A stretch of 63,813 nucleotides of DNA, filler included, from Squatina squatina (Eukaryota): NCBI GenBank assembly GCA_031763465.1. It is 4 parts of 4 records of this genome, joined end to end, with 100 filler letters (N's around TTAATTAATTAA, not from the genome) between each part and the next. Parts side by side here need not be neighbours in the genome. Positions count along the whole stretch, not along the records: positions 1 to 17,476 come from JARFOE010000004.1; 3 more parts are not named here. One strand, given 5' to 3'. How positions within the stretch are numbered: the first letter of the stretch is position 1; every line of letters starts with the position of its first letter. Below, one piece after another: positions 8,669 to 57,900 of the stretch. The notes under the pieces were generated by a model. That model searched no databases and was not told the origin of the DNA. It worked only from the letters and a program-made list of their open reading frames with translations. A program made the position numbers and the translations under genes.

Positions 8669-8777
8669 GGATGTCTCGGAGCGGCTGCAGAGCATTCTGG
8701 AGGGGGAGGGTGAACAGCCAGTTGTCGTGGTGCACATTGGCACCAGCGATATAGGTAAACAGCGGAATGAGGTCCTA
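8669..8777 (+). mobile_element. CR1-clade LINE ORF1 (SGNH esterase-like) fragment
   Basis: DVSERLQSILEGEGEQPVVVVHIGTSDIGKQRNEVL carries the VHxGTND-type block of CR1 ORF1 esterase domains. Confidence 0.75.
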
Positions 8778-11700
8778 CCATATCCATCATTTTCACTGAT
8801 ACGAGGCAGACCTGTCTCCCCGCGGTAAGTGTTACTCCGCAGGTACGGCAGGCTCTCCCTGTTCAGGATAGCACTACACACATAAATGGTGCCGATTGTT
8901 CCGGAGATGTCATGCGGTGCATTGCAGAGCGCGGTATCAGGCAGGGAACGCGCAGTGTAAGCAAACCATTCGTCGATTCGTGTCTCTGGACACATTATAC
9001 ATATCGCCGCGGTCCAGCAGAGCGCCGAGGCTGTTTAAAGCTGCAGTACTGTTGCAAAACCATACAAATCACATGCTTTTATTACTGGGACCAAATGTAA
9101 ACAAAAGTTACATTTTTTAACGATGCTTATAGCCGCAATTTTGACCTGTGAATAAATTCGAATTACACTGACCATGTGACTTTTCCGACTTGGGTTTGTT
9201 AAAGAGTGATACCTGAATGAAGACGTGACACAGACTGGTGCTGACATTCTGTTATAAGTTAAGATCAGGAAAGATACGGAATTCAAGTGGGTTATAAGCA
9301 TGAACATGGTTGAAGTAATCCGATAACGCCACAAATGATGGGGGATCGGAACTGACGCTGCCAGGGGCGCCCTTTTTTAGTCTCGATATCCCAGTTCCAG
9401 TGGGTGAGAAACGAGTTACAGCGTTTTTAAGGGTTCGCTCTGAATGTGGAATCTTCATGTACTGCAGCGGCCAGAGTCACCGACCAAACTTGGATCATTC
9501 ATGAGTACAAACATTTATCTTCTCTAGTATGCGTTTTGTTACCAATATTTATTGTAAGGTAACGAACTTGTAAGCACGAAAAGAACAGTTCTCTCTCACT
9601 CTCTCAAAATTCAGATATTGGTTTATGTAGGCTAAAGTCATTTTATTGTTTTTAAAACAAATCAAACAACAAGCGTTAATATTTCAGCCCTCCGTGTCGA
9701 TGTAAGCTCTGGACTCGCCTCCCAGAAGAGGACAGACACTGGATGTCCTGCTTGTAAAACAAACGCCAATGTTGTTTTTGTAATAGGAGCTGCTGTTGTG
9801 TTTGGACCCCGCCATCCCGGGGCTCGAAGAGGAACGCTATGAATCACTTTTATCGTCCAGATTGTCAGTGGAAGCAATAAGCGGATCAAAACGCTGCACA
9901 AACAAGAAATAGGACAATATGATGCAACTGTTGGAGTTTGAAAAGGCTAAANNNNNNNNNNNNNNNNNNNNNNNNNNNNNNNNNNNNNNNNNNNNNNNNN
10001 NNNNNNNNNNNNNNNNNNNNNNNNNNNNNNNNNNNNNNNNNNNNNNNNNNNNNNNNNNNNNNNNNNNNNNNNNNNNNNNNNNNNNNNNNNNNNNNNNNNN
10101 NNNNNNNNNNNNNNNNNNNNNNNNNNNNNNNNNNNNNNNNNNNNNNNNNNNNNNNNNNNNNNNGGACGCCGATTCCGTTTTTCGACGTTGTGAGCCAAGT
10201 CCCTTGTTCTTGAATCCGCGTCTAAATGCTGCTTACATCTGTTTGTCAGTGATCACCACAGATTCATTAGATCCTGCTGTTGAACCAAGCTCTTGTTAGA
10301 TTGGGGCTGATTATTGCTAAACTACTGCGGATCGAACTTTGCAGAATCAAGTAACTAAGATTCCGTTTTTTTGTTGTTGCAGGTTTCCACATCTCTTCCG
10401 CCATTGGCGCTCAATTTAAACCACCATCGGCTCAAATATACCATCGAGAACTGGACTCTTAGAATTGATTCCCAAACATTGGACTGTCCGTCAGTGCCAT
10501 TAAAGCGCATTAATGTCCGTGTGGATATGGGTTCGGCAAGCGTAGACACCACTACATCCTCGACAGAAAATGTGTGTTTTTTTAAGAAACCCTGCTGAGT
10601 TTCTAGAATGGGGCGGTTAGATTTGAGGCTATGTGACCCGTTCTGAAATGCCCAGATCAGCCTCCCACACGCTTCCTCGCTGCGGTCGCGGAAACCACGT
10701 CAACCCTTACATGGGGGAGTCATCCCGCACACTGTGTCACAAATCGTGGCAAATGTCCTGGTTTCGAATGCACAAAATTATATTGATAGGTTTTCGGAGC
10801 AGCTTCGTTATTCACTTTTCAATTACACGGCAGCTGAAGTAAAACTCGATTTTACACTTAACCTTTTATAGGTTTCAATTCCCCAACATTTACGACCAGC
10901 CCCTCCACACACAGTATAAGCACTGTATCTACTACACTGACGGTATAGGCAAATCCCTGATGTAAGTAGATCTTTACCCATTTCACTACTGGAGCCATCC
11001 TTCACGGAACAGGATCCCACTGTAATTCTGTTTAGGTTTCCAGGGCTTTGAAGACAATTAAATCTCAGCTGCGATGTTAATGTGTCCTCTCATCGTCTCA
11101 GTGTCAGGCAAATCCAGTGGGATTGGAGACCATTTCCTCTCATCGAGTAGTTCAGTCATTTGGGAATGATATTTTTTAGCCACAGGCTAATCTTTTTCTG
11201 CTTTAAGTGCTAACATTTAAACTCCTGCAGGTTCACTGTGTTCTCATCGACCAAACCTTCTGCCAAAACTCCACTATAAAATTCATACTTTTACTGCCAA
11301 GGGCTGGATGGTATCCTCGTCCAAATCAACTCTGCTAAAGACATTAAACAGCCATGTTAACAGCAAAAACAGTAGTCACTGCGTGGTCCATTGAGCGGGG
11401 GTTTGGGGATTAATTTCATGATTAATTGTTTTCTCAAAGAAACCTGCAAAAGTCGCCGCATCTTCAGTGGAAACATATCCCGAGCAGAGATCGGTTTCTG
11501 CTGAGCGATCTCCCGCCGGTTAACACATGCAGGATTAGATGTGAGATTTGGGAGCACGATTTGGAATGGGGAGAGCCCCCACGCCCTCTTCGGCCGCAGG
11601 TCTCACAAAGGGAGAAGCTGCTTGGAGCTGACTGCGGTAAAAGTACCCATCGGGTTTAATTTGGTTTAGAAAATAAACCGTATTAAAAAGGGGATACGCG

Positions 11701-14700
11701 TTCTTCTAAGTTAATACCTACACAGATAAAGGAGTCGGGCTTTTAAAATTAGCATCTTTCCGGGGTGTGGTAGCTCTTATCCCAGGGCTTTATGTGAACT
11801 GTTCTTGTAAGCGATGCTCCCCTATCCTATATCGTGGCGATTCGAAGCGAGCGGAATTCAGATACATACAGCATGCTAGAACCACGAGGAAATCATCTAT
11901 AAGGGGACCAAACTATCTATAAGTAAGAATGGGTTCATCGGATACAAACCAGCGTCTGACACTCAAATCTTTTTTAAATCATAAATTTATATTCAATTTC
12001 TAAAGTCTACGCATCTTTCACTTGATCACGCTGGGTTGGCAGCAGTATGAGATCCATCAATGATTGTTGTAAAGTTGCCGTTACAAATGTTAGAATTGCT
12101 ATAAAATGTTGGCACGGCAGCGAAATCTTGAATCCGATCAGTATTAGCTGCGTTGAACGAACCACCGCCTTCACTAATATTGTAATGCTCGGAGAGGTGA
12201 TTGTACTATATTAAGAAATTACAGAGTGCTTTGAACAAAATGCGGTCGCTGTCATACCAATTTCAACACAATTTTCACGTTTGGATATAACTTGTTCATT
12301 GTTTTAGGGTTGTGGTCAAACTAGTTATGTAATAATAGCGCGTGCCGCACACAAAAGGCTCTGCTTTTAGCAGTCACGGAAGTACATTTAGAAATAATAT
12401 TTTACAACACAAGATGTCGCAGTAGGTGTTCGTTTGGAAGGCTCATATATGAAAAAAAGAGAATCAACTTTGATCAAACGGAGGAGGTCTTCGACCGCTG
12501 TTTATTGGTACAGCCAATGTGCAGGGTGAGCAGACAGTAAGCCTGCTCTTTGCTCAGTAATGTCCCCCGAGACTCCCCACTCCAAGCAGTAGTATCGCAG
12601 AGCACGTGGGCGCGGGGAACCTCGAACTCACACCAATGAAATGGGACAGAGCGACTGGCCCATGTACCAGTTGTAGATACCGCGGGGACACTGGTTACNN
12701 NNNNNNNNNNNNNNNNNNNNNNNNNNNNNNNNNNNNNNNNNNNNNNNNNNNNNNNNNNNNNNNNNNNNNNNNNNNNNNNNNNNNNNNNNNNNNNNNNNNN
12801 NNNNNNNNNNNNNNNNNNNNNNNNNNNNNNNNNNNNNNNNNNNNNNNNNNNNNNNNNNNNNNNNNNNNNNNNNNNNNNNNNNNNNNNNNNNNNNNNNNNN
12901 NNNNNNNNNNNNNNNNNNNNNNNNNNNNNNNNNNNNNNNNNNNNNNNNNNNNNNNNNNNNNNNNNNNNNNNNNNNNNNNNNNNNNNNNNNNNNNNNNNNN
13001 NNNNNNNNNNNNNNNNNNNNNNNNNNNNNNNNNNNNNNNNNNNNNNNNNNNNNNNNNNNNNNNNNNNNNNNNNNNNNNNNNNNNNNNNNNNNNNNNNNNN
13101 NNNNNNNNNNNNNNNNNNNNNNNNNNNNNNNNNNNNNNNNNNNNNNNNNNNNNNNNNNNNNNNNNNNNNNNNNNNNNNNNNNNNNNNNNNNNNNNNNNNN
13201 NNNNNNNNNNNNNNNNNNNNNNNNNNNNNNNNNNNNNNNNNNNNNNNNNNNNNNNNNNNNNNNNNNNNNNNNNNNNNNNNNNNNNNNNNNNNTAATCAAT
13301 GCTTTCTGACCTATCTCTTCTCTTGGCGGCGTCCCGCACCTGTGGCTTCACCTTGTTTCTCAATCAGAAACCACTGGTGACAATGGGTCGCCCCTTAACC
13401 GTTAGGAGTCCAAATGATCTTTAAAGCGGCGACTCCACTGAGCGCGTTGGAAGAGTTGATGGGTTTCAGAAGCTAGAGCTTCACCTGGTTGAACTCCTTT
13501 GTTGATCATATGGTTTCCGATTGTTTGTGGTACAATGATATAAGTTAATGTTTATGTGATATTCGAAGCAGATATTTGTTAAAAAGACGGAAGTATCTTC
13601 ACATGCAATACAACCAAAGAGGACAAAGCGTACATACAAGATGGGCTGTCTTTTTTTAATGTGTAGGTATGGGGAAGGGTGAAACCCATTAGATAGCCGC
13701 ATCCTCTGAGCTCTGGTTGTTTTACAATTGTGTTTTCTTTCGACAGACTCAACATGAGAAGGGTTTTCCGAAGTGAGGGGGTGGGGGAGTGGGGATGATC
13801 ACAGATGATCGCAAAATGGGAAATTTATGAATGAGGAAGATTTCAGACAGGTTTTGATGACTGATTTCATTGGATCGTTACGGGTGAAGGAAATTTCTTT
13901 CTCCCTGTATTTAAATAAGATCTGGAACCGAGTATCACACACTGGGCGTTTATGGAGATATGTTGAAATCAATGACCCGCAAACACACACATACACACAC
14001 ACCTTCTCTGTTTCTGTTTTAAAAGCTTTTAAAAATGTTCAATAATTCAATAATCATCTCCGAAATCTTTTCTTTCGGCTCCTCCTCAACACACTGTGCC
14101 TTGTGTTTAACCAGCATCTTCTGGGTATGAAATACTGACACTAAAAGGTCGAGTGTCATGGTTATTTTATCTAGAAGAAAATAAACATACCGAGCACTTC
14201 CTAATATCTTAACTTCATGGCACTGTGTATGAGATATATTCTATTCGAGTTCCTTCAGGGCGCTAAGGAGTAGAAGTCCAGCTGCGAGGAGTGCCTGTCA
14301 ATAAGTTTCAGGTTACATGTAGTTGACCAAAGAAGCAAAGTACTGAAATACTTCTGCAGTCAAACAGAAGAAGCACATTAGCTGCGCGATCTCAGGGCGA
14401 TAAGCAAAGTGTCAAGTACAAAAGCGCTCTCAGCCGCAGAGCTCCGTCTGATGAAGGCATATGCACTTATTGGCCCGGCTTCGGTGACCTGATTACCCGT
14501 ACCCTTGACCTACAAGTTTTTCTAAATACTCGGGCGAGAATGGATGCTAAACACATTTAGGTGGTGCTAATGTGTATTGTCCTATCAACCGGGGACGTTT
14601 CCCCTCCACAGGTATTCAAGGGGTCTCAAGTCAGTCCACACACAGCAGCAAACTCTCGGCGGCGGAGGACAGGGATCCATAATATGCTGCTGTCTTTATT

Positions 14701-16069
14701 TAATAAAACACTGATAACNNNNNNNNNNNNNNNNNNNNNNNNNNNNNNNNNNNNNNNNNNNNNNNNNNNNNNNNNNNNNNNNNNNNNNNNNNNNNNNNNN
14801 NNNNNNNNNNNNNNNNNNNNNNNNNNNNNNNNNNNNNNNNNNNNNNNNNNNNNNNNNNNNNNNNNNNNNNNNNNNNNNNNNNNNNNNNNNNNNNNNNNNN
14901 NNNNNNNNNNNNNNNNNNNNNNNNNNNNNNNNNNNNNNNNNNNNNNNNNNNNNNNNNNNNNNNNNNNNNNNNNNNNNNNNNNNNNNNNNNNNNNNNNNNN
15001 NNNNNNNNNNNNNNNNNNNNNNNNNNNNNNNNNNNNNNNNNNNNNNNNNNNNNNNNNNNNNNNNNNNNNNNNNNNNNNNNNNNNNNNNNNNNNNNNNNNN
15101 NNNNNNNNNNNNNNNNNNNNNNNNNNNNNNNNNNNNNNNNNNNNNNNNNNNNNNNNNNNNNNNNNNNNNNNNNNNNNNNNNNNNNNNNNNNNNNNNNNNN
15201 NNNNNNNNNNNNNNNNNNNNNNNNNNNNNNNNNNNNNNNNNNNNNNNNNNNNNNNNNNNNNNNNNNNNNNNNNNNNNNNNNNNNNNNNNNNNNNNNNNNN
15301 NNNNNNNNNNNNNNNNNNNNNNNNNNNNNNNNNNNNNNNNNNNNNNNNNNNNNNNNNNNNNNNNNNNNNNNNNNNNNNNNNNNNNNNNNNNNNNNNNNNN
15401 NNNNNNNNNNNNNNNNNNNNNNNNNNNNNNNNNNNNNNNNNACTCAGAGCTCACTTGGGGGAATCTCCGGGATATCCTCCGCCGTACAATCAAGTTCTAG
15501 CTATTGATGCAAATGTAGCAAAAAAAAAGTAGTGAAGGCAGCCTTTCCAGATCTATAGTGCTACAACGTGCAGACAGATCTGATGTTGGGCCCCGGAATC
15601 ACTGGCCCGAGTTGTAAGTAACATCTTGCAGCCAAGTGTTTTGTAAGCCTCCTCATAGAACTCCGAGGGCTGGGGTCTCACCTCTTTAAAAAGAAACGCC
15701 TTGGACAGCCCTAGACCAGGTCCCGTCAACATCTGCTCTGCCGACACCCCTCAAAAACTGTCACATTTAACACCTTCACAGCCATCCAGTTTTCAACAAT
15801 CTGAACAAATGCCAATTTTTTTTTTCCAAGGGGTGGACAAAAGAGGAAGTCAATGTGCCAACACAAGTGACTTTTTGATACCACCTGTTACAGAAGCTGG
15901 ATATACTACTTTGGATACACGTGTAACCTATTCTACATCTACTATGGTAAACCATGCTAAGAATCCACTCGGTCTCAAAATACCTCATTATCCCGAACAT
16001 AGGAGCTATAAGCTTTTGTAATACGATCAAATTACTGATCTGCTCAATCGATCAGACAGGCTTTTACAT
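8776..16069. other. CpG-rich block of degraded, apparently intronless reading frames; candidate endogenous viral or other foreign element
   Basis: About 35 CpG in 8780-9480 versus about 4 in 5000-5700 (manual count). Long stop-interrupted frames on + (~9590-10871, 13300-14520, 15442-16069) and on - (~12000-10858). No splice structure or host repeat signature seen. Internal gaps are sized (212, 594, 723 N), implying physical linkage. Confidence 0.45.
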
Positions 16070-17532: not shown

Positions 17533-17980
17533 NNNNNNNNNNNNNNNNNNNNNNNNNNNNNNNNNNNNNNNNNNNNAACACAAGGTAAATTTACTGCACT
17601 TCAGTATTTAAAGCTGGTTGGTTGGCACACCAGTGAAAGATGCTTTTCAATGTCTGGAATCGATGATCATTAGCACCAACTGTATTCCATTAAAGTTGTT
17701 CTAACGTGTTAGCTACATGGGGCAACTTGTAAACCTGACATGTATGGTATTAGTCTAGACTACAGCCCTGAGAGCAAGATTCTTAAATTACATGAGTGAT
17801 GCCATTAAAATAGTATAACTTAATTACTAATGAAGGTACGAAGTGGAAAATCGTTGTGCACTATATACTTTTAATTTAAAAATAACCCATCAAAAAGTTG
17901 CAAAAATACTCAAGTAATGTGTGCTGAAGACGCATGGAAAACATTGCAGATACATTATAGAAAAATGTATTTGAACTCAC

Positions 17981-18481
17981 ATGTGCCTCTTGTTTTACAA
18001 GATCATCCCACCGTGGCAGTCTTCTTGGCATAAGCTGAAGTTTGGAATCACTAGTTTCAATAATGAGTTCAGATGTTAAATAATTGGTTCTTTCTAACCA
18101 ATTAAGTGGCGATGAAAGCCCATCAGCGTCACCTTCAATTTCAGCAGAGTCCAATTCTGGAAATTCTTCATTATTTGTGGTTGTACTGTACTGGAATGGG
18201 GATGGAGTCAGCAGTAATCGCTGTTGGTCTCTAGTTAAAATATAAGATGCCATTACTAGGCATAGTATTATTACTCCCAAAAACAGGGTGCCCAGTTTTG
18301 CTTTCCAAGCAAAAATATGTCCACTCCACCCAAACCTGCGCTCTGCTTTGACCTCCAGTGTTGCAAGTAAATTCATTGGCTGCAGCTCAGCTTCATAAAA
18401 TAGTCGAGGTGGTTTTTGAAAGTCGCCGTTACAAGTAGATGAAGCAAATTTATTTTCTGTACGATCAGTCCCTGAATGCAT
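17981..18481 (-). CDS. CHST15: carbohydrate sulfotransferase 15 (GalNAc4S-6ST), first coding exon (cytoplasmic tail, TM segment, stem)
   Basis: MNLLATLEV, LVMASYILT, SPFQY and DDLVKQEAH match CHST15 (MNLLAVLEV, LVMASYILS, SPFHY, EDLKKQELH). Donor GTGAGT at 17980-17975; likely 5'UTR acceptor ttttccag| at 19015. Synteny with OAT and NKX1-2. Confidence 0.9.
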
Positions 18482-19832
18482 TTTACTCGGTCATGTACCT
18501 TGTAATAGTAAAGCAAAAGTGCACAGCAATTGTGTATTAAATAACTACATTTTCAATTGATGTCCTGGACTAATTTCTTTTGTCACCCTAGCATTGAAGA
18601 AAAGTCAGCCTTAGTTGATAAGTGGCTTGACAGAATCTTGCTCTTAAGCCATGAAGACTCTTTTCCGATGCGAGTTAGCGGAGGTAGTCAGTTTGCCTTT
18701 AAACATACCTACAGAAAGAGNNNNNNNNNNNNNNNNNNNNNNNNNNNNNNNNNNNNNNNNNNNNNNNNNNNNNNNNNNNNNNNNNNNNNNNNNNNNNNNN
18801 NNNNNNNNNNNNNNNNNNNNAACAGGAAATGTTACATCAGCTTCAGGAGTGTTTTTTTTCTCCATGCTAATTCAGTGCAGAATGGTCTTTTCTTCTTCAG
18901 ATCAGCTGCCTCACTGCGTGCACACAGCAAGAATTCAGGACTGCTCTTGTGGTTTCCTGAGTGGAACGTCAGCTGTTTTACTTATCCCATTTCCATCAGA
19001 CTATTTTTCCACCACCTGGAAAAGTGGTTCTCTTCATTTTGGTTTGTGCATATTTAACAAGTCACAGTTTGCACTCTACATTCCATTATCTTTTTAAAAA
19101 CTAACACGCTCAGGTTTATTCAGACAGTTTATGATTATTTAGAGAATGATGCTTAGACTATAATCATAGTCACATATCTTTTGGATCTCAGATGGTGAAA
19201 ACTAAGCTTGAGGTTTTTCTTACATAAAAATGGGTTGTTAATACTGTAGAGTTTGTCCCAACAGTTAACACTCCCTCAAGAATATTCACAAGACTTTGAA
19301 TGATCAGATACTGCATGCAAGAACTTATTGCATGTTTTGGCTTAATTCAGTTCCCGACTGTTGTATCTCTGTTCTAAGTCAATGACATTATACTTGAGAT
19401 TCACTGCCTGTGATCATCTGGTTGGGAGTTAACGCTGTGCTGCTACTGTTTTCAGGCAACCCCCTACCTTTAAGATTTCAAAGTAATATTTCAACTGTTG
19501 GAGTTGTTCAGACTGTTCTGGGGATCATAGAAGGATGACAGCTACTGATTACTGTGATATAGGCCTCATTTCGTTTATCATTTAAGAACTCAAGTTTCTT
19601 TTTGCCATTTTATCAGCACCAATTGACTAAAAAGTAAAATATACTTCATGTCATAAAGGATGAAACTCAGTAATCAAGATTTACTGGATATATTTCTAGA
19701 CACACGAGAAATATAAGTAGAAGATAATAAGTNNNNNNNNNNNNNNNNNNNNNNNNNNNNNNNNNNNNNNNNNNNNNNNNNNNNNNNNNNNNNNNNNNNN
19801 NNNNNNNNNNNNNNNNNNNNNNNNNNNNNNNN

Positions 19833-31719: not shown

Positions 31720-32364
<645 letters not shown>

Positions 32365-32504: not shown

Positions 32505-33017
32505 NNNNNNNNNNNNNNNNNNNNNNNNNNNNNNNNNNNNNNNNNNNNACCCTGAGTCCGATATTTTTATAACTAATAAACAGGAGAAAATTAAAACAAA
32601 AATGCCATTTTATGAATGCCGCTATTATTCACCTCCTGGGTTTTGCTCGTGGCTGTGCCACAGAGATTAATCTTTCATTCCTGGAGACTCTAGGGCAATC
32701 CTGGAGGGTTGGCAACCCTAATCAAGACTGTTAACCTTTAAGTACCTGGCTAACGACACCAGGACACAGTTGTGGCCTTTGTGGGACGGTGGTGGAAGGC
32801 ACAGCTATGATGGGCCAAATGGCCTCCTCCTGTGCTGGTTCATTCTATGATTCTAACCTCTTCCAAAAGAAAATATGTAATTTGTGGTGTCGCAGATCAA
32901 GCAGCACTTACTGCTATTCGTGTCGTAGAACTAGCAGCATTTTTAAAGGGGCTTGGTGGTAAAGGCATCCTTGTTGATTTACCAGTGCCTCATTATCCCG
33001 TCATTCTCTCTCTGCAG

Positions 33018-33184
33018 GAGCACAGGGCCTGTAACGTGGACTCGTGCCCCGAGGTACGCAGGAACACGCCGTGGACACCCTGGATGCCGGTCAACGTGAG
33101 CCAGACCGGAGCCCGTCACGAGCAGCGTTTCCGCTACACCTGCCGGGCCCCACTGGCAGACCCACACGATCTCCAGCTTGGGAC
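33018..33184 (+). CDS. SEMA5B: semaphorin 5B internal exon (thrombospondin-repeat region), truncated by a gap
   Basis: ctctctgcag|EHRACNVDSCPEVRRNTPWTPWMPVNVSQTGARHEQRFRYTCRAPLADPHDLQLG matches SEMA5B (CPEVRRNTPWTPW...CRAPLADPH); synteny with SLC49A4. Confidence 0.88.
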
Positions 33185-34512
33185 NNNNNNNNNNNNNNNN
33201 NNNNNNNNNNNNNNNNNNNNNNNNNNNNNNNNNNNNNNNNNNNNNNNNNNNNNNNNNNNNNNNNNNNNNNNNNNNNNNNNNNNNATTCTTTTAAAGGTTG
33301 CAGCAGTCATTTTCTTGACTTAAAATGACGATTTGGCTAAGGACATTTTAGCTGACAGGATTGTTGGAATGCATGTCAAACAGAAGCATCCATTTTTCTC
33401 AGCAATTTTACATAAATAATGAAAAATAAAAACTACCGCAGCACTGAGTTGCTTAGAATCCTGAGTGTCTTGGGAACAGGTCAATAAAATTAATTATTTA
33501 TTGATCATTCGGTTTAATGAAAAAAAAGCAACACAGATTATTTAGCCTAGGACTGGATACCCTTAATTATAGTAAATAACTCATATTAATAGTTCTATAG
33601 TGATGTTTTAAAAGCTGAAAACTATCAATTTAATGGCTGATTTTTTTTCTCCATATCTTTCTTACTTCAAGAAAGACAGCTCCCCGAGATGAAAGTATTG
33701 CTGATGGTTAATAATAGGCCAATTATATTACACAGTTTTGACTTCTCATCACCGCAAACTGCGAAGTGGGATTTGAATACAAAGTAACTCCAGGAGGTAT
33801 TTTTACACCACTTTTGGCTTCATAACTGCAGGCAGTGTGCAGTGAAGTTTAAAATGTCCCCTGGTGGTCCATTGAATAGCTTGGGAACTTCTTAAATCAC
33901 ATTTTTAATCTTTTTGCTGCTCGCAGAATGCTGATAGCTCTGCTGATGCTAAAATTGAATTGGCATTCTGATGCCACTGATATGCCTGCAAAAAGCCTCC
34001 CCCCCCCCACCCCTTACAGGCAGGCCAGAACCCTGAAATTTACAGCTATCATTTTAACGGACCTGTGATGCACAAAAGAAAAATAGATCCTTTGATGGGA
34101 GCTGTGCCACGCGGCTGGCACTGGCGAGTTGTAAGATGCCAGGGATCGCCACGTTATTCTGAGGGGCGGTATCTGCCCACGTAGCGACAATACCCCAGCG
34201 ACTGACGACTTTTAACCGCCCTGAACAATATTGAGCACCAGCCTGCTGGTTATAAAACTAGAAGAAACGGATCTATGGATCTCCATACTGAACAAATGGG
34301 CAAGGTTGCGCTCATTGCTGGCACCGCAGAGTCCCCAGTGGGTCGGAGGAGTTGTTTTTGAAGGTTCTCATGCCTTCCTATGCAATTTAAATTATGGTAC
34401 TGTCGGTAAACTGCGGCATAGAGAGTAATCACTGCCTCTGTAGACACTGTGAATTGTTTTTTTGTTATTCTATGTATTTTTTGTATATTGTACATTGCAA
34501 AAGATATTACAG

Positions 34513-34518
34513 AATAAA
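34513..34518 (+). terminator. possible polyadenylation signal (SEMA5B 3' end?)
   Basis: AATAAA preceded by a T-rich, TGTA-rich tract (34460-34500) typical of 3'UTR ends. Confidence 0.3.
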
Positions 34519-37319
34519 CCATTCCGAGGAGATGTTAAGTTGAATGTTTCCCTCAACGATGTGGTCCCTTTTCTTTCTTCTTTCCCCCTGCCCCCCACCC
34601 CATCTCTTTTCATGNNNNNNNNNNNNNNNNNNNNNNNNNNNNNNNNNNNNNNNNNNNNNNNNNNNNNNNNNNNNNNNNNNNNNNNNNNNNNNNNNNNNNN
34701 NNNNNNNNNNNNNNATTTCTCCACTCGGCATCTCAGGAGGCCATCGAATGGAGAGCCAAACCGGACACCCGCTTTTCCAGTCATACACATCAACGTGTCA
34801 CGGGGAGCTAGGAAAGCTGATTTATAAAATCTCTCATGACTCCGGGGGTCGTGTGTCATCCATCGCCAATACCTCAGCAGCTACAGCGTGCAGAGCAGTA
34901 GCAAAGAACAATGGAGACAAAACCGTATTAAAGAATCTGACAGATGATTATTGAGTGTAAAAAAAGTTGGTGAAGGTGAATCGGGAACCTTGTGCCCAAG
35001 TGGCAGGTAATTTGTATGATTGCAGACATCACAGCCAAGAGGCTCCATAGGAGATTAATGCAGTTTGAAAGCTTGTATTAAATATATCTTCCTGTGGCTC
35101 ACCTCCACAAATGTGATTTACTGGCAATTTTAATCTCTGCGTACAAGGGGGAATATGAACGAAATTGGAAACAAAATAAAAGCAATTTTGAATTAAAGAA
35201 AAAAAAAATTACCAAAAGCTGTTTATCTCTTCTGTGGAATTCGAACGCAGCTCCTCAGGGTTATGTTGGTCTTTGCAGTGAGATTCCTCTGATCATGTGG
35301 CATTTTTTGGGCAATGCTTACACATCACCCACTTTTTAAAAATTCGTTCTCAAAGCCAGCATTTACTGCCCANNNNNNNNNNNNNNNNNNNNNNNNNNNN
35401 NNNNNNNNNNNNNNNNNNNNNNNNNNNNNNNNNNNNNNNNNNNNNNNNNNNNNNNNNNNNNNNNNNNNNNNNTTCAGCACAACAGCCGGGATGTTACCAG
35501 GTCTGATAGCCTTTGCTGCACTCAGTGTTCTCAGCTCAGCTAATCAGTGGGCGGCTCGGGGTCGTGTTTGAGTTTTAAAAACATTTTTTACATCTCATCT
35601 GACCTGAACCCACCTGTTTTTTGGGGGTTAAAGTGACATCCATAGTCATTGACGGAGATTTATTGCTAAGAAAGTTGGTTAGCTATGTGAGTCACAAAGA
35701 TAAACCTACAGGATAAAAGTCTGGCTCCCTGGAACAAGAGCTGCATAGATTGGGAAAACGATTGTAAGATTGCCGACGGGAACCGAAGCGGAGCTAGTGG
35801 TGGTGGCCCGTGTAAGGGTTGGCAGAATAGGGAGAAATTGTACAGAGGCCCTCAAGGACACCTATGTGAGGTTAACCTCAAAACCTAATAGGGAACGTGA
35901 AGTAATGTTGCCAGGCACACTTATCGTGTTTGGAAAAAGAGATGAGTTGATAAGAAAAATAGATGATGTGAACAAACGTTGGTTCTTTCTTTTTTTTAAT
36001 AGACTGGCAGCTCAGAATAAGAGGAAGGGGATAATGAAAAGTTAAGGAGGGCATGCGAAAACAAAAAGGTTGTATTAAAATGGGATTCCAAACGAACTAA
36101 TATTAAATCGGGGTTGCCCAAAGTGGCCTGGAGTCAGGATTGGAAAATGCAGTGCATGATTGCTTCAGGACTCAGTACCTCACTGAAATCACAAGTGGCA
36201 CATCTCTGCTCTGCTTAGTAATGATAAGTGACCTTGACAGCGTGCAGTAAATGGAAGTCATGGGACCTCTGGATGACAGTGACCACAACCTGATTACGTT
36301 TGATGTGATTTGGGATTCGACACTGCCAACATCCATTTTAAACAATATTCCATTTTCCTTCAGTATTGGTAGTAACCTTACTTAATAGAGTTGATCAAAT
36401 TACCTGATTGAAATTTTCTGCAATTTTAGTCAAGTTTTCCTTTTTAACGTCCGGAATTAACATTGGCTCCTCAGTGCCTTCTGGTTCTACTCGCCAACAG
36501 AAATCTAATAAATGCTATGATCATTATTGCTCAAGTTTTCCCCTTTATAGAGGTCTGATGCTATATCACTGCTGAACACTAATTCAAGTATATGTCCAGC
36601 CCATGTTACCTCCTTGACTTGTTGAGTTAGGGAACAGTTTTATAAGATTTCTACAAATCTTTCAGCTACCCTGCTCTCAATATTTGATAGCTCACCACTG
36701 ATTGATCTGTTGGCAAATTAAAGTCCCCCATCAGGCATCACTTGTTTCAGAAGCTTTAGTAATTTGTTTCTATTTTGCCACAATGGGCTTCTTCACCTGG
36801 AGGTCTATAAAAATGACCAATAATCAGTCTATGGCCTGACTTCAACTGTTTCCCATTAATAAACATAGTCACACCTCTACTTTTATGACCTACTCTATCC
36901 TTTATGAATCAATTGTAACCTTTTAAATGATTCTCTGATCCATTATTCCCAAGTAATCATGTCTCAGAAAAGCATATGATATCCAATTTNNNNNNNNNNN
37001 NNNNNNNNNNNNNNNNNNNNNNNNNNNNNNNNNNNNNNNNNNNNNNNNNNNNNNNNNNNNNNNNNNNNNNNNNNNNNNNNNNNNNNNNNCAAACAGAAAC
37101 TTAGGAGGAGCAGAACCCTCCCGAAGAAGCAAAATCATTCGCTCTATCTTTTGCGAGCACCAGCTCAGAGATCGGCACCCTGGTTGGGATAGAAAGTAAG
37201 GCAGAGGTGGATACATAGGATGATATGCACAGTACTCATGAACAGATGGGGGAGACAGTGAAAAGGGAAGCCCAGGTTATAGGAACTCTGTGTTCCTCCA
37301 AATCTGGCCTCTTGTCCAA

Positions 37320-37585: not shown

Positions 37586-37859
37586 CACACACATTGAGGT
37601 TTAAGTCCATTATCTTCATGCTAAGAAACTGGGTTGGTACTTAAGATTTCTTCAATATACACTGCATTCCACTTGCACAGATGCTTAATGCAAAATCCTG
37701 AGATACAAATAACCTATTTACCATGCAAGACTAAACTCCTTGTATCCACAATACTTTTAATGCAGAACCTTATGTAACACACAAAAAATGCCAATTGAGC
37801 ACACTTCAAAGTCTGGAAAACAGCAATACAAATTATCAAAAGAAAACATTTAAAATTAC

Positions 37860-38042
37860 CTGTGTGATAAAATGTCAGGAACATTAATAATAATCCCATG
37901 AAGATGTTGCTTAAGAAGGTCACAAATCCACATGTTATCCCCTCTGGTACTGGGTACACAGTCTCCACAAAAAGTTCAAAGAAGAAGGGAACACTGCTGA
38001 TTATGAATACTCCAATTAATATGCACGATGTATATAAAGTTG
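37860..38042 (-). CDS. SLC49A4: SLC49A4/DIRC2 MFS transporter, late exon
   Basis: ttccag|..[60 protein letters not shown]|gtaatt; 183 bp. Confidence 0.92.
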
Positions 38043-38459
38043 CTGGAATATTAAATAACACAAGTTAAAAAAGGATCATGAAACAGATTGAGAAATGGCA
38101 CACTCTATAAGCAATAGAAAACATCACTAAATTGTGGCATAGAAACCGAGATGCAGGACAAAATTCAGAGCATAGCCAGTTGTATAGCCTGTTCTGTATA
38201 GTCCAGCTCTACAGATTGTATGTGAGATTACCAAGCCAAGAGTCTTGCAAAGCAGAAAGGTTTACCATGATGGTAAAAGTACCTATAGAACATCCTAAGA
38301 AGTTGTCTTCTGTGCATCTGTTTGTGTTCTTTGCAGTCTATTTGCTACAGTCTGGTTCCNNNNNNNNNNNNNNNNNNNNNNNNNNNNNNNNNNNNNNNNN
38401 NNNNNNNNNNNNNNNNNNNNNNNNNNNNNNNNNNNNNNNNNNNNNNNNNNNNNNNNNNN

Positions 38460-46384: not shown

Positions 46385-46655
46385 TCTCGCTGCTGCCTCT
46401 AGCCTTCTCGCAGTTCCGCGCTCCCTGTTGGGTGCTGGGCCTCTCGCTGCTGCCTCTAGCCCCCTCGCAGGTACGTGCTCCCTGTGGAGTACTGAGCCTC
46501 TCGCTGCTGCCTCTAGCCCCCTCGCAGGTCCGCGCTCCCTGTGGGGTGCTGGGCCTCTCACTGCTGCCTCTAGCGTCCTCGCAGGTCCGCGTTCCCTGTG
46601 GAGTACTGAGCCTCTCGCTGCTGCCTCTCGCCCCCTCGCAGGTCCGCGCCCACTG
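46385..46655 (+). repeat. 57-bp GC-rich minisatellite, ~4.7 copies
   Basis: Units start at 46385, 46442, 46499, 46556 and 46613. Confidence 0.9.
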
Positions 46656-46659
46656 TCGG

Positions 46660-46783
46660 GCGGTATCGCCTTATGTGGCTCGGTTTCAAATTTTATTGGA
46701 TAACGCTCCTGTGAACCCCCCTGGGACGTTTTACTACGTTAAAGGTGCTATTTAAATACAAGTTGTTGTTGTTATTGTTGTTG
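46660..46783 (+). mobile_element. L2-like 3' UTR with (ttg)n tail
   Basis: Matches 37490-37585. Confidence 0.7.
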
Positions 46784-47572: not shown

Positions 47573-49124
47573 CGGGCTGGGAGAAAAACGATCATATATA
47601 TTTTTAACTATTTATTGAATACTTGTTGCATGAAACTCCAGTCACACCAGTAAACATCAACAACAGAAACATTTAACTTCCCATTTGTGCACAAACTTTA
47701 ATTGTCAAGAGGTTAAAATTTATTCCATGTTACCTGCATCTGGTCAGGTTGTATGACAAATCCACCCTGAAATATGAGTATTCAAAATGTTAAAAACAGC
47801 ATTTAATGAGAAAGTATTGATAAGATATATTCTATTTAGTATGATCGCACTGGAAGAGATACTTGTTAATGCATACTTACAAAGTTGGCATTCATTCTGG
47901 TGGCCTGTAGAGTCCATCGAGATCCCTGGGTACAAATTAACGACAATATTAATTGTTGGCTTTGAGGTGTTAGAAGCAAAGAAAGAGCTTCCATTTATAC
48001 AGCGCCTTTCATGGCCGCAGGACATCCCAAAGAGCTTTACAGCCAATGAAATACTTTAGAATACANNNNNNNNNNNNNNNNNNNNNNNNNNNNNNNNNNN
48101 NNNNNNNNNNNNNNNNNNNNNNNNNNNNNNNNNNNNNNNNNNNNNNNNNNNNNNNNNNNNNNNNNTCTGGTGACAAGGCCCATATGATTGGATTTTTTTT
48201 GAGCGGTGATGGAAGCTGTGAGCTTACGAGCATCTAACCAGCGTATTTGCTTTGACCGCCTAGAAACGCCAACATTTAGGCCTTGCTAAAGACCCTCTCC
48301 TCTGTCTGTATTTTATGTTTTGAGGTATAAAACCCATTGCATCAACTCTTGTGGCTGTAAATCGGAACAAGAAAACAACCAAGATGGTGGCATCAGTAAT
48401 TTTAATCAAGTATAATTAGATACACATTGTAACGAGGCAGTACGTACATAGATGGATATTGCCCCAGTCCTTTGGTGAACAGGCAGTCATGTCTTGAAAC
48501 TGTCCATCCTCATGTTCCTTGCTCATGCTCTGTTCTTCCCCTGGAGGCAGTTCTTCATATACCCCCCATCCTGACTCCATGTGGTGTCCACATGACCATA
48601 ACATCATCCATCCTCAGCTAATCGGCGACACTGAAGTCCATTAACCCATATATGGACACGCTTCAAGTTTGTTTTTTGCCTTACATTTTCCAGCCAACAC
48701 AACTTTAAAACAAACTGCAGTGCGACAGTTTAGAATTGCATGGCTGGCAGTGTATGACAGAACTGTGCTGAGTGGTGCGGAGCCATACGGGCCAGATAAT
48801 CTCTCCTTCATGCCAGATCTCAGCTGGTGCATGAGTTGAGGCACGACATTAGCTCTCTGGCTCGGGGTCAGGGAGGTTTAAAAAGAAATAGACTTGTAAT
48901 TCTTGCTCCTGGATCATGTCGCAGTGACCACGTGGGTGTGGGAATGATGGCTGAGAACAGGATTGGCATTGGTGGTGATGTGGTCGAAGAGTTTGACCAG
49001 CTATACAGCAAAAAGGAAGGACAGAAATTGGACTGAAGGAGAGAAGAATTGGCGATTGGGGGAGGTGGAGATTGTTAGAGAATTGCAGTTTCTGGTATAT
49101 TGGACTAACATCTGGTTCCCCTCC

Positions 49125-49345
49125 ATAGCCAGGGTATAGGTCTGCAGTTACCCTCCATACAGTGTTTAGATCTGCGATTACCCTACATAGCCAGGATACA
49201 GGTCTGTGATTACCCCAGAGACAGTATGCAAGTCTGTGATTACCGTAGAGACAGTATGCAAGTCTGTGATTACCCAAGGTAGGCCGTGTTTAGATCTGCA
49301 ATTACCTTACATAGACGGGGTACAGGTCTACAATTACCCTCCATA
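49125..49345 (+). repeat. degenerate ~28-30 bp tandem repeat (tctg(c/t)gattaccc core)
   Basis: Core motif recurs about seven times. Confidence 0.7.
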
Positions 49346-51983: not shown

Positions 51984-54900
51984 NCAGAGGGAGCTCTGTA
52001 TTGTAATGTGGAGTGGGGTCTGTATTGTAATGCGGAGGGAGCTCTGTATTGTCATGTAGAGGGTGCTCGGTATTGTAATGTAGAGGGAGCTTGGTGTTGT
52101 AATACAGAGGGTGCTCTGTATTGTAATGTGGAGGGGGTCTGTATTGTCATGCGGAGGGAGCTCTGTATTGTCATGTAGAGGGTGCTCGGTATTGTAATGT
52201 AGAGGGTGCTCGGTATTGTAATGTAGAGGGGGCTCAGTATTGTAATGTAGAGGGAGCTCTGTATTGTAATGTAGTGGAAGCTCGGTATTGAATTGTAGAG
52301 AGAGCTTTGTGTTGCAATGTAGAGGGAGCTCTGTTTTTAATCTAGAGGGAGCTCTGTATTGTAATGTAGAGGGTGATCGGTATAGTAATGTAGAGGGAGC
52401 TCGGGACTGTAATGTAGAGGGAGCTCTGTATTGTAATATAGAAGGAGCTCAGTATTGTAATGTGGAGGGAGCTCTGTAACCTAATGTTGTTGGAGTTCTG
52501 TACTGTAATGTAGAGGGAGCTTGGTATTGTAATGCAGAGGGAGCTCAGTATTGTAATGTAGAGGGAGCTCTGTATTGCAATGCAGAGGGACCTCTGTGTT
52601 GTAATGTAGAGGGAGCTCTGTATTGCAATGTTAAGGCAGCTCAGTATTGAAATGGAGAGAGAGCTAGTATTATAATGTAGAGGGAGCTCGGGACTGTAAT
52701 GTAGAGGGAGCTCTGTATTGTTTTCTAGAAGGAGCTGTTTGTAATGTGGGGGGAGCTCTGTATTGTAATGTAGGGAATGCTCGGTATTGTAATGTAGTGG
52801 GATCTAAGGACTGTAATATAGCGGGAGCTCGGTCTGTAATATAGAGGGAGCTCTGTTTTGTAATGTAGAAGGAGCTCGGTATTGTAATGTAGAGGTCGCT
52901 CAGTATCCTAATGTAGTGGGAGTCCTGTATTGAAATGTAGAGGGAGCTCGGTATTGTAATGTAGAGGGAGCTCGCTATTGTAATGTAGCAGGAGCTCTTT
53001 ATTGTGATGCAGAGGGAGCTCAGTCTTGTAATGTAGTGGGAGATCTGTATTTTAATGTAGAGTTGGCTCTGTATTGTAATGCAGAGGGAGCTCTGTATTG
53101 TAATGTAGAGGGAGCTCTGTATTGTAATGTAGAGAGAGCTTTGTATAGCAATATAGGGGGAGCTCTGTATTGTGATGGAGAGGGAGCCATGTAATGTAGT
53201 GTAGAGGAATGTCTGCATTGTAATGTAGAGGGAGCTGAGTATCCTAATGTAGTGGGAGTCTGGTATTGAAATGTAGAGGGAGCTCGGTATTGTAATGTAG
53301 AGGGAGCTCTGTGTTGTAATGTAGAGAGAGCTTTGTATTGCAATGTAGAGGCAGCTCTGTATTGTAATACAGAGGGAGCTCTGTATTGTAATGCAGAGAG
53401 AAGTCAGTATTGTAATGTAGAGAGAGCTTTGTATAGCAATGTAGAGGGAGCTCTGTATTGTTATGCAGAGGGAGCTCTGTTTTGTAATGTAGTGGGAGCT
53501 CGGTACTGTATTGTAGAGGGACCTCTGTATTGCAATGTAGAGGGTGCTTGGGAAAGTAATGCAGAGGGAGATCTGAATTATAATGTAGAAGGGAGCTCTA
53601 TTTTGTAATGTAGAGGAAGCTCTGTATTGTACTGTAGAGGTAGCTCGGTATTGCAATGTAGAGGGAGCTTGGTACTGTAATACAGAGGGTGCTCTGTATT
53701 GTAATGCAGAGGGAGCACACTATTGTAATGCAGAGGGAGCTCTGTATTGTAATGTGGAGTGGGGTCTGTATTGTAATGCGGAGGGAGCTCTGTATTGTCA
53801 TGTAGAGAGCTTTGTATTGCAATGTAGAGGCAGCCCTGTATTGTAATACAGAGGGAGCTCTGTATTGTAATGTCGAGGGAGCTCTGTATTGTAATGTAGA
53901 GAGACCTAGTTTTGTAATGTAGAGGGACTCGGTATTGTATTGTAGAGGGAGCGTAGTATTGTAATGTAGAGGGAGGTCTGTATCGTAATGTAGAGGGAGC
54001 TTGCTATTGTACTGTAGAGGCAGCCCTGTATTGTAATACAGAGGAGGCTCTGTATTGTAATGTAGAGGGAGCTCTGTATTGTAATGTAGAGAGAGTTAGT
54101 ATTGTAATGTAGAGACAGCTCGGTATTGTAATGTACAGGGAGATCTGTATTGTAATGTAGAGGAAGCTTGGTATTGTAATGCAGAGGGAGATTGGTATTG
54201 TAATGCAGAGGGAGATCTGTATTTTAACGTAGTGTGGGCTCTGTATTGTAACATAGAGGGTGCTCTGTATTGCAACGCAGAGGGAGCTCGGTATTATAGT
54301 GTAGAGGGAGCTCTGTATTGCAATTTAGAGAGAGCTTTGTATAGCAATGTAGAGGGAGCTCTGTATTGTGATGCAGAGGGAGCTCGGTATTGTAATGTAG
54401 AGAGATCGGTATTGTAATGTAGAGAGAGCTCTGTATTGTAATGTTGAGAGTTCTCAGTATAGTAATGTAGAGTGATCTCAGTATTGTAATACTGAGGGAG
54501 CTCTGTATTGGAATGCGGAGGGAGCTCTGTATTGGAATGCGGAGGGAGCTCTGTATTGTAATGTAGATGGAGCTCTGTATTGTAATGTAGAGAGTTCTCA
54601 GCATAGTAATGTAGAGTGATCTCGGTATTATAATACTGAGGGAGCTCTGTATTGTAATGTAGAGGAAGCTTTGTCTTGTAATGCAGAGAGAGCTTGGTAT
54701 TTTATTGCAGAGGGAGCTATCTAGTATAATGCAGAGGGAGCTCTGTATTGTAATGTAGAGACAGCTCAGTATTGCAACGTAGAGGGAGCTATGTATTGTA
54801 ATGCAGAGTGAGTCGGTATTGTAATGTAGCTGGGGCTCTGTACTGTAATGTAGAGGGAGCTCGGTATTGTAATGTAGAGGGAGCTCGGTATTGTAATGTA

Positions 54901-57900
54901 GAGGGAGATCAGTATTCTAATGTGAAGGTAGCACGGTATTGTAATGCAGAGGGAGCTCGGTTTTGTAATGTAGAGGGAGCTCTGTATTGCATTGTAGAGG
55001 GAGCTCTGTATTGCAATGCAGTGGGAGCTTTGTATTGTAATTTAGATGGAGCTGTGTACTTTAACGTAGAGAGTTGTTAGTATTGTAATGTAGAGTGATC
55101 TCGGTATTGTAATGTAGAGGGAGGTTAGTATCCTAATGTAGTGGGAGTCCTGCATTGAAATGTAGAGGGAGCTCGGTATTGTAATGTAGAGGGAGCTCGC
55201 TATTGTAATGTAGAGAGAGCTTTGTATTGTAATGCAGAGGGAGCTTGGTATTGTAATGCAGAGGGAGCTCTGTATTGTAATGTAGAGGAAGATCTGTATT
55301 GTAATCTAAAGGTTGCTCGGTATTGTAATGTAGAGAGAGCTTTGTATAGCAATGTAGAGGGAGCTCTGTATTGTTATGCAGAGGGAGCTCTGTTTTGTAA
55401 TGTAGTGGGAGCTCGGTACTGTATTGTAGAGGGACCTCTGTATTGCAATGTAGAGGGTGCTTGGGAAAGTAATGCAGAGGGAGATCTGAATTATAATGTA
55501 GAAGGGAGCTCTATTTTGTAATGTAGAGGAAGCTCTGTATTGTACTGTAGAGGTAGCTCGGTATTGCAATGTAGAGGGAGCTTGGTACTGTAATACAGAG
55601 GGTGCTCTGTATTGTAATGCAGAGGGAGCACACTATTGTAATGCAGAGGGAGCTCTGTATTGTAATGTGGAGTGGGGTCTGTATTGTAATGCGGAGGGAG
55701 CTCTGTATTGTCATGTAGAGGGTGCTCGGTATTGTAATGTAGAGGGAGCTTGGTGTTGTAATACAGAGGGTGCTCTGTATTGTAATGTGGAGGGGGTCTG
55801 TATTGTCATGCGGAGGGAGCTCTGTATTGTCATGTAGAGGGTGCTCGGTATTGTAATGTAGAGGGTGCTCGGTATTGTAATGTAGAGGGGGCTCAGTATT
55901 GTAATGTAGAGGGAGCTCTGTATTGTAATGTAGTGGAAGCTCGGTATTGTAATGTAGAAAGAGCTTTGTATTGCAATGTAGAGGCAGCTCTGATTATAAT
56001 GCAGAGGGAGCTCTGTTTTTAATCTAGAGGGAGCTCTGTATTGTAATGTAGAGGGTGATCGGTATAGTAATGCAGAGGGAGCTCGGGACTGAAATGTAGA
56101 GGGAGCTCTGTATTGTAATATAGAAGGAGCTCAGTATTGTAATGTGGAGAGAGCTCAGTAACCTATTGTTGTTGGCGTTCTGTACTGTAATGTAGAGGGA
56201 GCTTGGTATTGTAATGTAGAGCGAGCTCCCTAGTGTAATGTAGAGGGAGCGCTGTACTGTAATGTAGAGGGAGCGCTGTATTGTAATGTATATGGAGCTC
56301 GGTATTGTCATGCAGAGGGAGCTTGGTATTGTAATGCAGAGACGCTTAGTATTGTAAAGTAGATGGAGCTCCGTGTTGTAATACAGAGGGAGCACTGTAT
56401 TGTATTACAGAGTGTGCTCGGTATTGTAATGTAGACGGAGCTTGGTATTGTACTGTAGAGGGAGCTCAGTATTGTAATACAGAGCTAGCTCGGTATTGTA
56501 ATGTAGAGGGAAATTGGTATTCTAATGTAGAGGGAGATCGGTATTGTGATGTGGAGGGAGCTCGGTATTGTAATGTAGAGGGAGCTCTGTAGTGTAATGC
56601 AGTGGGAGCTCAGTATTGTAATGTAGAGCGAGCTCTGTATTGTAATGTAGATGGAGCTCTGTAATTTAATTTAGAGAGTTCTCAGTATTGTAATTTAGAG
56701 TGATCTCGGTATTGTAATACAGAAGGAGCTCTGTATTATAATGCAGAGGGAGATCTTTGTTGTAATGTAGAGGGGGCTCTGTATTTTAACGTAGAGAGAG
56801 CTTTGTATTGTAATGCAGAGGGAGCTTTGTATTGTAACACAGAGGGAGCTCAGTACAGTAAAGTAGATGGAGCTCGGTGTTGTAATGCAGAGGGAGCTCT
56901 GTATTGTAATGTAGAGGGAGCTCTGTATTGTAATGTAGAGGGAACTCTGTATTGTAATGTACAGGGAACTCGGTATTGTAATGCAGAGGGAGCTCTGTAT
57001 TTTAATGTAGCGGGAACTCGCTATTGTAACGTAGAGGGAGCTCGGTAATGTATTGTAGAGGGAGCTCGGTATTGTAATGTAGAGGGAGATCTGTATTGTA
57101 ATGTAGAGGGATCTCTTTATTGTAAAGGGATCTCTTTATTGTAATGTAGAGGGAGCTCTGTACTGTAATGCAGAGGGAGCTCTGTATTGTATTGTAGTTG
57201 AATGTATGCATTGTAATGTAGAGGGAGCGCGGTAAGTAATGCAGAGGGTGCTTGGTATTGTAATGTAGAGGGAGCTCGGTATTGTAATGCAAATCGTGCT
57301 CTGTATTGCAATGTAGAGGGAGCTTGGGAAAGTAATGCAGAGGGAGCTCTGTATTGTCACCTAGAAAGGGCTCTATATTGTAATGTAGAGGCAGCTCGCT
57401 ATTGTAATGTAGAGGGAACCCTGTATTGAAATGTAGAGGGAGCTTGGGAATGTAACACAGAGAGAGCTCTGTATTGTAATGTAGAAGGGAGCTCTATATT
57501 ATAATGTAGAGGGAGCTCTGTATTGTAATGTAGAGTGAGCTCTGTATTGTAATGTAGAGGGAGCTTGTTACTGTAATATAGAGGGAGCTCTGTATTGCAA
57601 TGTAGAAGGAGCTCAGTATTGCATTGTCGAGGGAGCTCTGTATTGTAATACAGAGGGAGATTTGTATTATAATGTAGAGGGAGCTCGGTACAGTATTGTA
57701 GAGAGACCTCTGTATTGCAATGTAGCGGAAGCTTGGGGAAGTAATGCAGAGGGAGTTCTGTACTGTAATGTTGAGTGTGCTCTGTATTGTAATGTAGAGG
57801 GAGCTTGGTACTTTAATATAGAGGGAGCTCTGTATTGCAATGTAGAAGGAGCTTGGTTTTGCAATGTCGAGGGAGCTCTGTATTATAATGCAGAGGGAGA

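Follow-up and report, generated by a model that had tools for sequence, protein, structure and literature searches.

Positions 8776–16069 of a 63,813-nucleotide stretch of the Squatina squatina genome (assembly GCA_031763465.1; the whole stretch is referred to here as the window) form a CpG-rich block, and the question raised by this locus is whether the block is what remains of a DNA virus, or a virus-like element, with densely packed genes, as an earlier note on the same DNA had put forward. The block spans 7,294 bases, of which 5,765 are known bases in four pieces and 1,529 are N bases in three runs of 212, 594 and 723; the compositional anomaly recognized in the earlier note is real, while the N runs had gone unmentioned there. 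The block carries a faint coding trace and is most likely an insertion that has decayed and is of a general kind already known, either a viral or a mobile-element fossil. That it is foreign, once-coding and decayed DNA is likely, with statistical support from CpG content and codon phase. This part of the earlier proposal stands, whereas no virus family is supported. A viral origin is a candidate reading only, and descent from a large DNA virus or a virus-like DNA element is given a probability of roughly 0.4.

CpG Content and Base Composition

Within the known bases of the block 215 CpG dinucleotides were counted, equal to 26 per 700 bp and an observed/expected ratio (o/e) of 0.78, compared with 7.9 per 700 bp (o/e 0.30) in the left flank and 11.4 per 700 bp (o/e 0.42) in the right flank, which bears out the CpG richness first described. 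The GC content is 44% in the block and 39–40% in the flanks. Sliding windows of 700 bp contained 15–37 CpG inside the block (median 26) against medians of 5 and 10 outside, and the excess is therefore approximately three- to five-fold; the original comparison of 35 with 4 CpG per 700 bp had set a peak against a trough, the true values being about 26 and 8–11. Pieces 1 (8778–9951), 2 (10164–12698) and 3 (13293–14718) have the three highest CpG o/e values (0.88, 0.84 and 0.68) of the 37 pieces of at least 500 bp that contain no N, and piece 4 (15442–16069) has an o/e of 0.50. It should be noted that the ratio declines from left to right, for which no explanation is offered. None of the four pieces is assigned a strand, and the GC skew changes sign between pieces and within piece 2. 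The ratio of the whole block lies within the 10–90% range (0.76–1.19) of 26 large-DNA-virus loci of like GC content.

Codon-Phase Signal and Open Frames

Base autocorrelation at multiples of three gave a contrast of 8.8 over lags of 6–30 bases (shuffle standard deviation 2.3), a value reached by none of 200 shuffles. The contrast was positive in all four pieces, with five flank sets ranging from −2.0 to 2.9, and Markov surrogates matched it in 0, 0, 0 and 1 of 150 cases. In four longer lag bins, beyond 30 bases, it was approximately zero. As the phase is strong below lag 30 and gone above it, coding DNA with frequent frameshifts is proposed, and the signal is read as a moderate, real trace of such DNA, the short-range phase being visible in piece 2. 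The coding claim of the earlier note is thus upheld in so far as the trace exceeds shuffles, with the qualification that it is short-ranged. A self-trained 3-periodic model gained 20–21 bits for the block against at most 13.9 in 30 shuffles, and 22.6 bits where 14 local shuffles did not exceed 9.8; its fit improved with more frequent frame changes over the whole range covered, which ended at 1 in 40 bases. Allowing mixed orientations improved the fit by 14 bits over a single orientation; as local shuffles yielded 9.5–15.9 bits from skew alone, the genes on both strands that had been proposed are unsupported. When natural viral loci were given 2% indels, those of large DNA viruses showed lag-profile medians of 10.3/4.0/1.4 or 6.2/2.4/0.5, the closest to the block profile, and RNA-virus loci gave 3.2–3.7, below the block.

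The longest open frames in pieces 1–4 comprise 113, 114, 105 and 120 codons, lengths reached by 19, 41, 31 and 7 of every 100 shuffles respectively. The frames of hundreds of codons described earlier therefore reduce to a longest frame of 120 codons (piece 4, plus strand, 15659–16021), which shuffles equal. Stops make up 3.9–5.5% of codons in the six frames of the block. The minus strand is slightly stop-poor (1 of 60 shuffles), the plus strand is not (43 of 60), and both strands together give 12 of 60. The minus strand of piece 1 is lowest in stops (0 of 60), with 200 codons holding a single stop at 8777–9376. Two further candidates were rejected. A single frame persisting across all gaps had 77 stops against 83–107 in the other five and was dropped as the best of six, and an agreement between composition-derived and stop-poor frames looked promising in the self-trained model and failed in a dedicated test.

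Searches for Homologs

Searches of the block covered 79% of its span, the other 21% being N, and single-frame searches are weak for it because frequent frameshifts break up coding DNA. The best Pfam match in 24 frames had an E-value of 0.0044 over 20 residues, short of the cut-off, and 12 hand-picked stretches gave a best E-value of 0.044. Pfam also failed to detect putative long interspersed nuclear element (LINE) fragments flanking the block (relevant matches for 0 of 6), and its silence on the block is for this reason weak evidence. The best PHROGs match in 24 frames had an E-value of 0.0087, and six whole frames gave nothing below 1.5 against the PDB. Three word-based protein searches, limited in length range and sensitivity, returned no matches each, and a sensitive library search returned none among 1,835,955,588 proteins for one frame of six at 11100–14699 only. 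Pattern-based locus searches gave no confirmed homolog, Rfam gave no match in the block, and at the DNA level none came from plasmids, phages or E. coli, the E. coli search being confined to 8776–12698. Single-sequence AlphaFold models were uninformative (predicted local distance difference test scores of 34.5 for piece 1 and 34.8), with nothing found by Foldseek at E ≤ 0.001. Hence no significant similarity to viral proteins was found in the part of viral protein space that was covered. The earlier note had stated that its proposal would fall if significant profile matches and a codon-like signal above shuffles were both lacking; the former are lacking, and the latter is present.

Natural reference loci of several virus groups, gathered by motif or published primer (primers from PMC7289782), were compared with the block, the reversed block serving as control. 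Among 289 Mononegavirales open reading frames (ORFs), 13 weak matches were obtained in the block and 13 in the control. A profile of 60 L proteins gave an E-value of 0.073 against 0.041 in the control, and the scores of profiles for F, HN, rhabdovirus G and bornavirus G were reached by 1, 25, 8 and 28 of 40 null sets. The surroundings of polymerase genes from large DNA viruses, mostly environmental (1,211 ORFs), gave 5 weak matches against 9 in the control. The alloherpesvirus polymerase and capsid regions (187 ORFs, 33 profiles, 7 loci), drawn from four cyprinivirus-type records only, gave a best E-value of 0.032. Two resemblances noted by eye were discarded: L-protein motifs just after two N runs, where the L profile did no better than in the reversed block, and a gene layout of M-F-HN-L as in paramyxoviruses, in which the top of piece 2 seemed to carry an F-like pattern of cysteines; the F score falls elsewhere, and the PDB gave no match for that place.

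A frameshift-aware comparison, as had been suggested, was run on 2,294 natural ORFs (594 + 1,211 + 489) from Mononegavirales, alloherpesvirus polymerase and capsid regions, other large DNA viruses and protein-primed polymerase loci; retroviral, long terminal repeat (LTR), transposase, adomavirus, poxvirus and iridovirus proteins were not targeted in these sets, and for adomaviruses the coverage consists of the general Pfam, PDB and library searches. In a control of the aligner, a homolog of 28% identity scored 387 at 10% substitution and 1% indels and 85 at 20% and 2%, with a chance maximum near 80. The top residual was 24.9 against 31.9 in the control for 594 ORFs, Mononegavirales and alloherpesvirus references among them, and 19.1 against 26.1 for 489 ORFs from 128 protein-primed polymerase loci. 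For the 1,211 ORFs it was 27.2 against 23.5 in their own control, below the 31.9 of the 594-ORF control, and was taken as noise. Of 18 ORFs sampled from the protein-primed loci, 6 carried DNA_pol_B_2 and 1 carried Pox_A32, capsid and integrase references being unconfirmed in this set. As the residuals stay at chance, neither a family B polymerase nor an L protein or a capsid gene of cyprinivirus type is detectable in the visible bases. The assignment of the block as alloherpesvirus/Teratorn-like or Maverick/adintovirus-like thus met only noise in the polymerase and capsid comparisons, with frameshifts allowed too.

Features of mobile elements were also sought. None of the 5,765 known bases belongs to a repeat that recurs elsewhere in the window, which agrees with the earlier observation that no host repeat signature is visible, though the left flank likewise shows none in 8,265 bases. 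No pair of LTRs or terminal inverted repeats beyond chance was found in the visible bases, the right end of the block not being observed. Reverse transcriptase, protease, zinc-knuckle and RNase H motifs were absent from 24 frames in a single-frame scan, two integrase patterns gave one loose match each in the same frames, and piggyBac transposase was absent from the Pfam scan of the visible bases. An 18-bp inverted repeat (8810/12678) was dropped, with about 0.3 expected by chance on our estimate. Apart from these, a direct repeat matching at 15 of 16 positions lies at 13645–13660 and 14689–14704, reading on the minus strand as an A-run followed by an ATG 14–15 bases on; this could be a repeated gene junction or could have arisen by chance. 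A back-to-back pair of polyadenylation-like hexamers occurs at 14695–14707 in piece 3, and is not diagnostic since three further such pairs lie in the host flanks.

Junctions and Assembly Layout

On its left side the block follows, without a gap at 8777, a fragment of 36 open codons on the plus strand (8670–8777) whose 3′ side it truncates; the gap-free join reported in the earlier note at about 8776 was confirmed in the sequence. This fragment resembles a LINE ORF1 esterase-like region and is presumably a CR1/L2 esterase of shark type. Its best single-stretch match in the PDB was weak (4c1b, 'ORF1-encoded protein', residues 2–36 of 36, E-value 0.16), and Pfam gave no match to 8670–8777. TAL-effector rows in the same PDB search were set aside, their scores being summed over repeats with no significant stretch. 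The right end of the block, which is that of piece 4, is a scaffold join of 100 N, so that a right junction with host DNA was not observed. The argument for integration rather than contamination accordingly keeps its gap-free left join, and is limited to one junction in a draft of pieces of 0.2–2.5 kb.

The window as a whole consists of such draft pieces, with 29 joins of 100 N and 3 of 10 N, together with three pads of 44 N + TTAATTAATTAA + 44 N, and the order of pieces across its joins may not be reliable. The three N runs inside the block are the only odd-sized ones among the 41 runs of the window, and the piece that contains them, measured from one standard join to the next, is 7,401 bp long, three times the length of the second largest (2,334 bp). 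The N-free pieces within the block (628–2,535 bp) are of ordinary size for the draft.

Origin of the Block

On the reading preferred here, that of a fossil, a DNA virus or virus-like element would have left a fragment of gene-dense foreign DNA in the germline, within a LINE copy or adjacent to one. Entry may have been by non-homologous capture, as no terminal repeat, integrase or transposase is visible. Neutral decay would then have introduced frameshifts every few dozen bases, leaving a block that was presumably once protein-coding, foreign in origin and now without function. A large DNA virus or virus-like element is the first choice of source because strong short-lag periodicity after about 2% indels persists in large-DNA-virus loci and mostly not in those of RNA viruses, and because the CpG o/e of the block falls within the range of large-DNA-virus loci. 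The more specific version, a large DNA virus from a family without a detectably close sequenced relative, integrated in a cartilaginous fish, is considered unlikely.

Several observations weigh against a viral fossil. No homolog appeared anywhere we looked. Of five lag bins a single one carries the periodic signal, and the difference between 300-bp windows of the block and the flanks reaches only p 0.03. A 6-state model beat 24 of 24 local shuffles for the block but did likewise in four of six flank sets, probably owing to exons and tandem repeats there. Codon models trained on viral ORFs gave the block z-scores of at most 2.6, with flank controls up to 3.0 and host exons at 2.9–5.1, and natural ORFs sank to the level of the block only near 20% simulated decay. 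Frames chosen purely by composition were no poorer in stops than shuffles (45 of 1,230; observed/expected 0.77 against 0.53–0.92). The trinucleotide signature is nearer to the host flanks (r 0.27–0.62) than to viral medians (0.13–0.27). Heavy decay also fits badly with the retained CpG, with TpG and CpA that are barely raised (1.10 and 1.20) and with the open LINE fragment at the junction.

In published work, seen here through partial texts, Teratorn and endogenous alloherpesvirus elements are the same kind of object, gene-dense and CpG-rich foreign DNA in a fish genome (PMC5601938; PMC5822658; PMC11089739). Teratorn carries 13 alloherpesvirus core genes (PMC5601938), whereas the block matches neither polymerase, major capsid nor neighboring genes and lacks both piggyBac transposase and intact ORFs. 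The accessible portions report no Teratorn-like matches in chondrichthyans (PMC5822658) and, in Chondrichthyes, five non-retroviral elements with no herpesvirus or alloherpesvirus element among them (PMC11089739). The few chondrichthyans screened for Mavericks yielded none, perhaps through sampling, and stop codons and frameshifts have eroded 96% of the Maverick loci of vertebrates (PMC8097293, as available). The erosion of degraded Maverick/Polinton copies is similar to that of the block, whose size would suit a partial copy, but its visible bases show no protein-primed polymerase, A32-type ATPase or integrase signal and no terminal inverted repeats. Paramyxovirus-, hepadnavirus-, parvovirus- and benyvirus-like elements of sharks are likewise degenerate fossils in cartilaginous fish (PMC11089739; PMC11521997); they were found through protein similarity, of which the block has none, L, F, HN and G being negative. 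Among titles and abstract openings no large-DNA-virus fossil in a shark was found, and supplements may list relevant loci; the accessible portion of PMC8227577 held nothing bearing on the block.

The main competitor is an endogenous retrovirus, LTR retrotransposon or large DNA transposon in a decayed state, its recognizable domains eroded or lying within the N runs. It is regarded as possible, if doubtful, and is kept alive by base rates, which also count against a viral fossil: six chondrichthyan genomes are reported to hold 4,861 retroviral reverse transcriptase loci (2,018 + 2,843) against the five non-retroviral elements (PMC11089739, in part), and retroelements with virus-like ectodomains are described from cartilaginous fish in the available text of PMC11521997. 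The length of the block would fit such an element, mixed orientations account for the codon phase no better than a single one, Pfam is weak evidence here and the frameshift-aware sets held no retroviral or transposase proteins. The absence of pol-type motifs from the single-frame scan and of LTR or inverted repeat pairs from the visible bases speaks against it, as do the GC skew, which changes sign between pieces, and the CpG content, retroviruses usually being lower in CpG than the block. A fossil of an RNA virus with a Mononegavirales-type gene array, copied in by a LINE reverse transcriptase, would account for the LINE fragment at the junction, and the 13645/14689 repeat resembles a minus-strand gene-end A-run followed by ATG, a likeness noticed post hoc. 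Paramyxovirus- and benyvirus-like elements being known from sharks would also suit it (PMC11089739; PMC11521997, both in part). It is very improbable all the same, given that the L profile did no better than its control, that F, HN and G fell within the null with the F score away from the F-like place, and that the periodicity of the block exceeds that kept by decayed RNA-virus loci.

Two explanations that involve no decayed insertion stay alive because heavy decay should have cost more CpG, the host o/e being 0.3–0.4. The block could be non-host DNA, a contaminant or chimeric contig (from a parasite, prey or other source) scaffolded through its LINE-like end, in which case the undecayed CpG needs no extra explanation; the outsized 7,401-bp piece, the odd-sized N runs and the unobserved right junction are in keeping with this. 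It is judged distinctly unlikely in view of the gap-free join to the LINE-like fragment, the ordinary size of the N-free pieces and the lack of a match in plasmids, phages or E. coli, and intact microbial or viral DNA would give long ORFs and a 10-fold stronger periodicity. Alternatively, host non-coding DNA may have been kept unmethylated, with periodicity by chance. Broad non-methylated islands are known from cold-blooded vertebrates, where CpG-island rules detect them poorly (PMC3583005, in part), a homeobox gene lies 16 kb from the block, and the trinucleotide signature and the A/T-run excess (2.4-fold) are flank-like. This is rather improbable, as the block has an abrupt edge inside the LINE fragment and an excess of codon phase; moreover, such islands cover developmental genes according to the same partial source, and neither such a gene nor an exon is visible in the block.

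If the block is viral, it would be a multi-gene fossil of non-retroviral origin, a rare find in a cartilaginous fish, and would give evidence of a virus lineage that the databases lack. The block also illustrates a type of insertion that is overlooked by single-frame screens.

Other Features of the Window

An intact host exon with a homeodomain (Pfam PF00046, E-value 8e-22) lies on the minus strand at 31720–32364, and is presumably NKX1-like. The adjacent region 32549–35372, with a CpG o/e of 0.50–0.60, is probably the promoter region of this gene. Two open frames resembling host exons, both on the minus strand and without a Pfam match, were found at 17876–18490 (204 codons, coding z-score 2.9–3.8) and 37714–38064 (116 codons, transporter-like by eye). 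A satellite with a 24-bp unit occupies 51986–63811 in about 494 copies with 79% matches and a strong G skew, and gives rise to long repetitive pseudo-ORFs. Two minisatellites were also detected, one of 57 bp in 4.8 copies, CpG-rich, at 46385–46660 and one of about 30/62 bp at 49119–49329.

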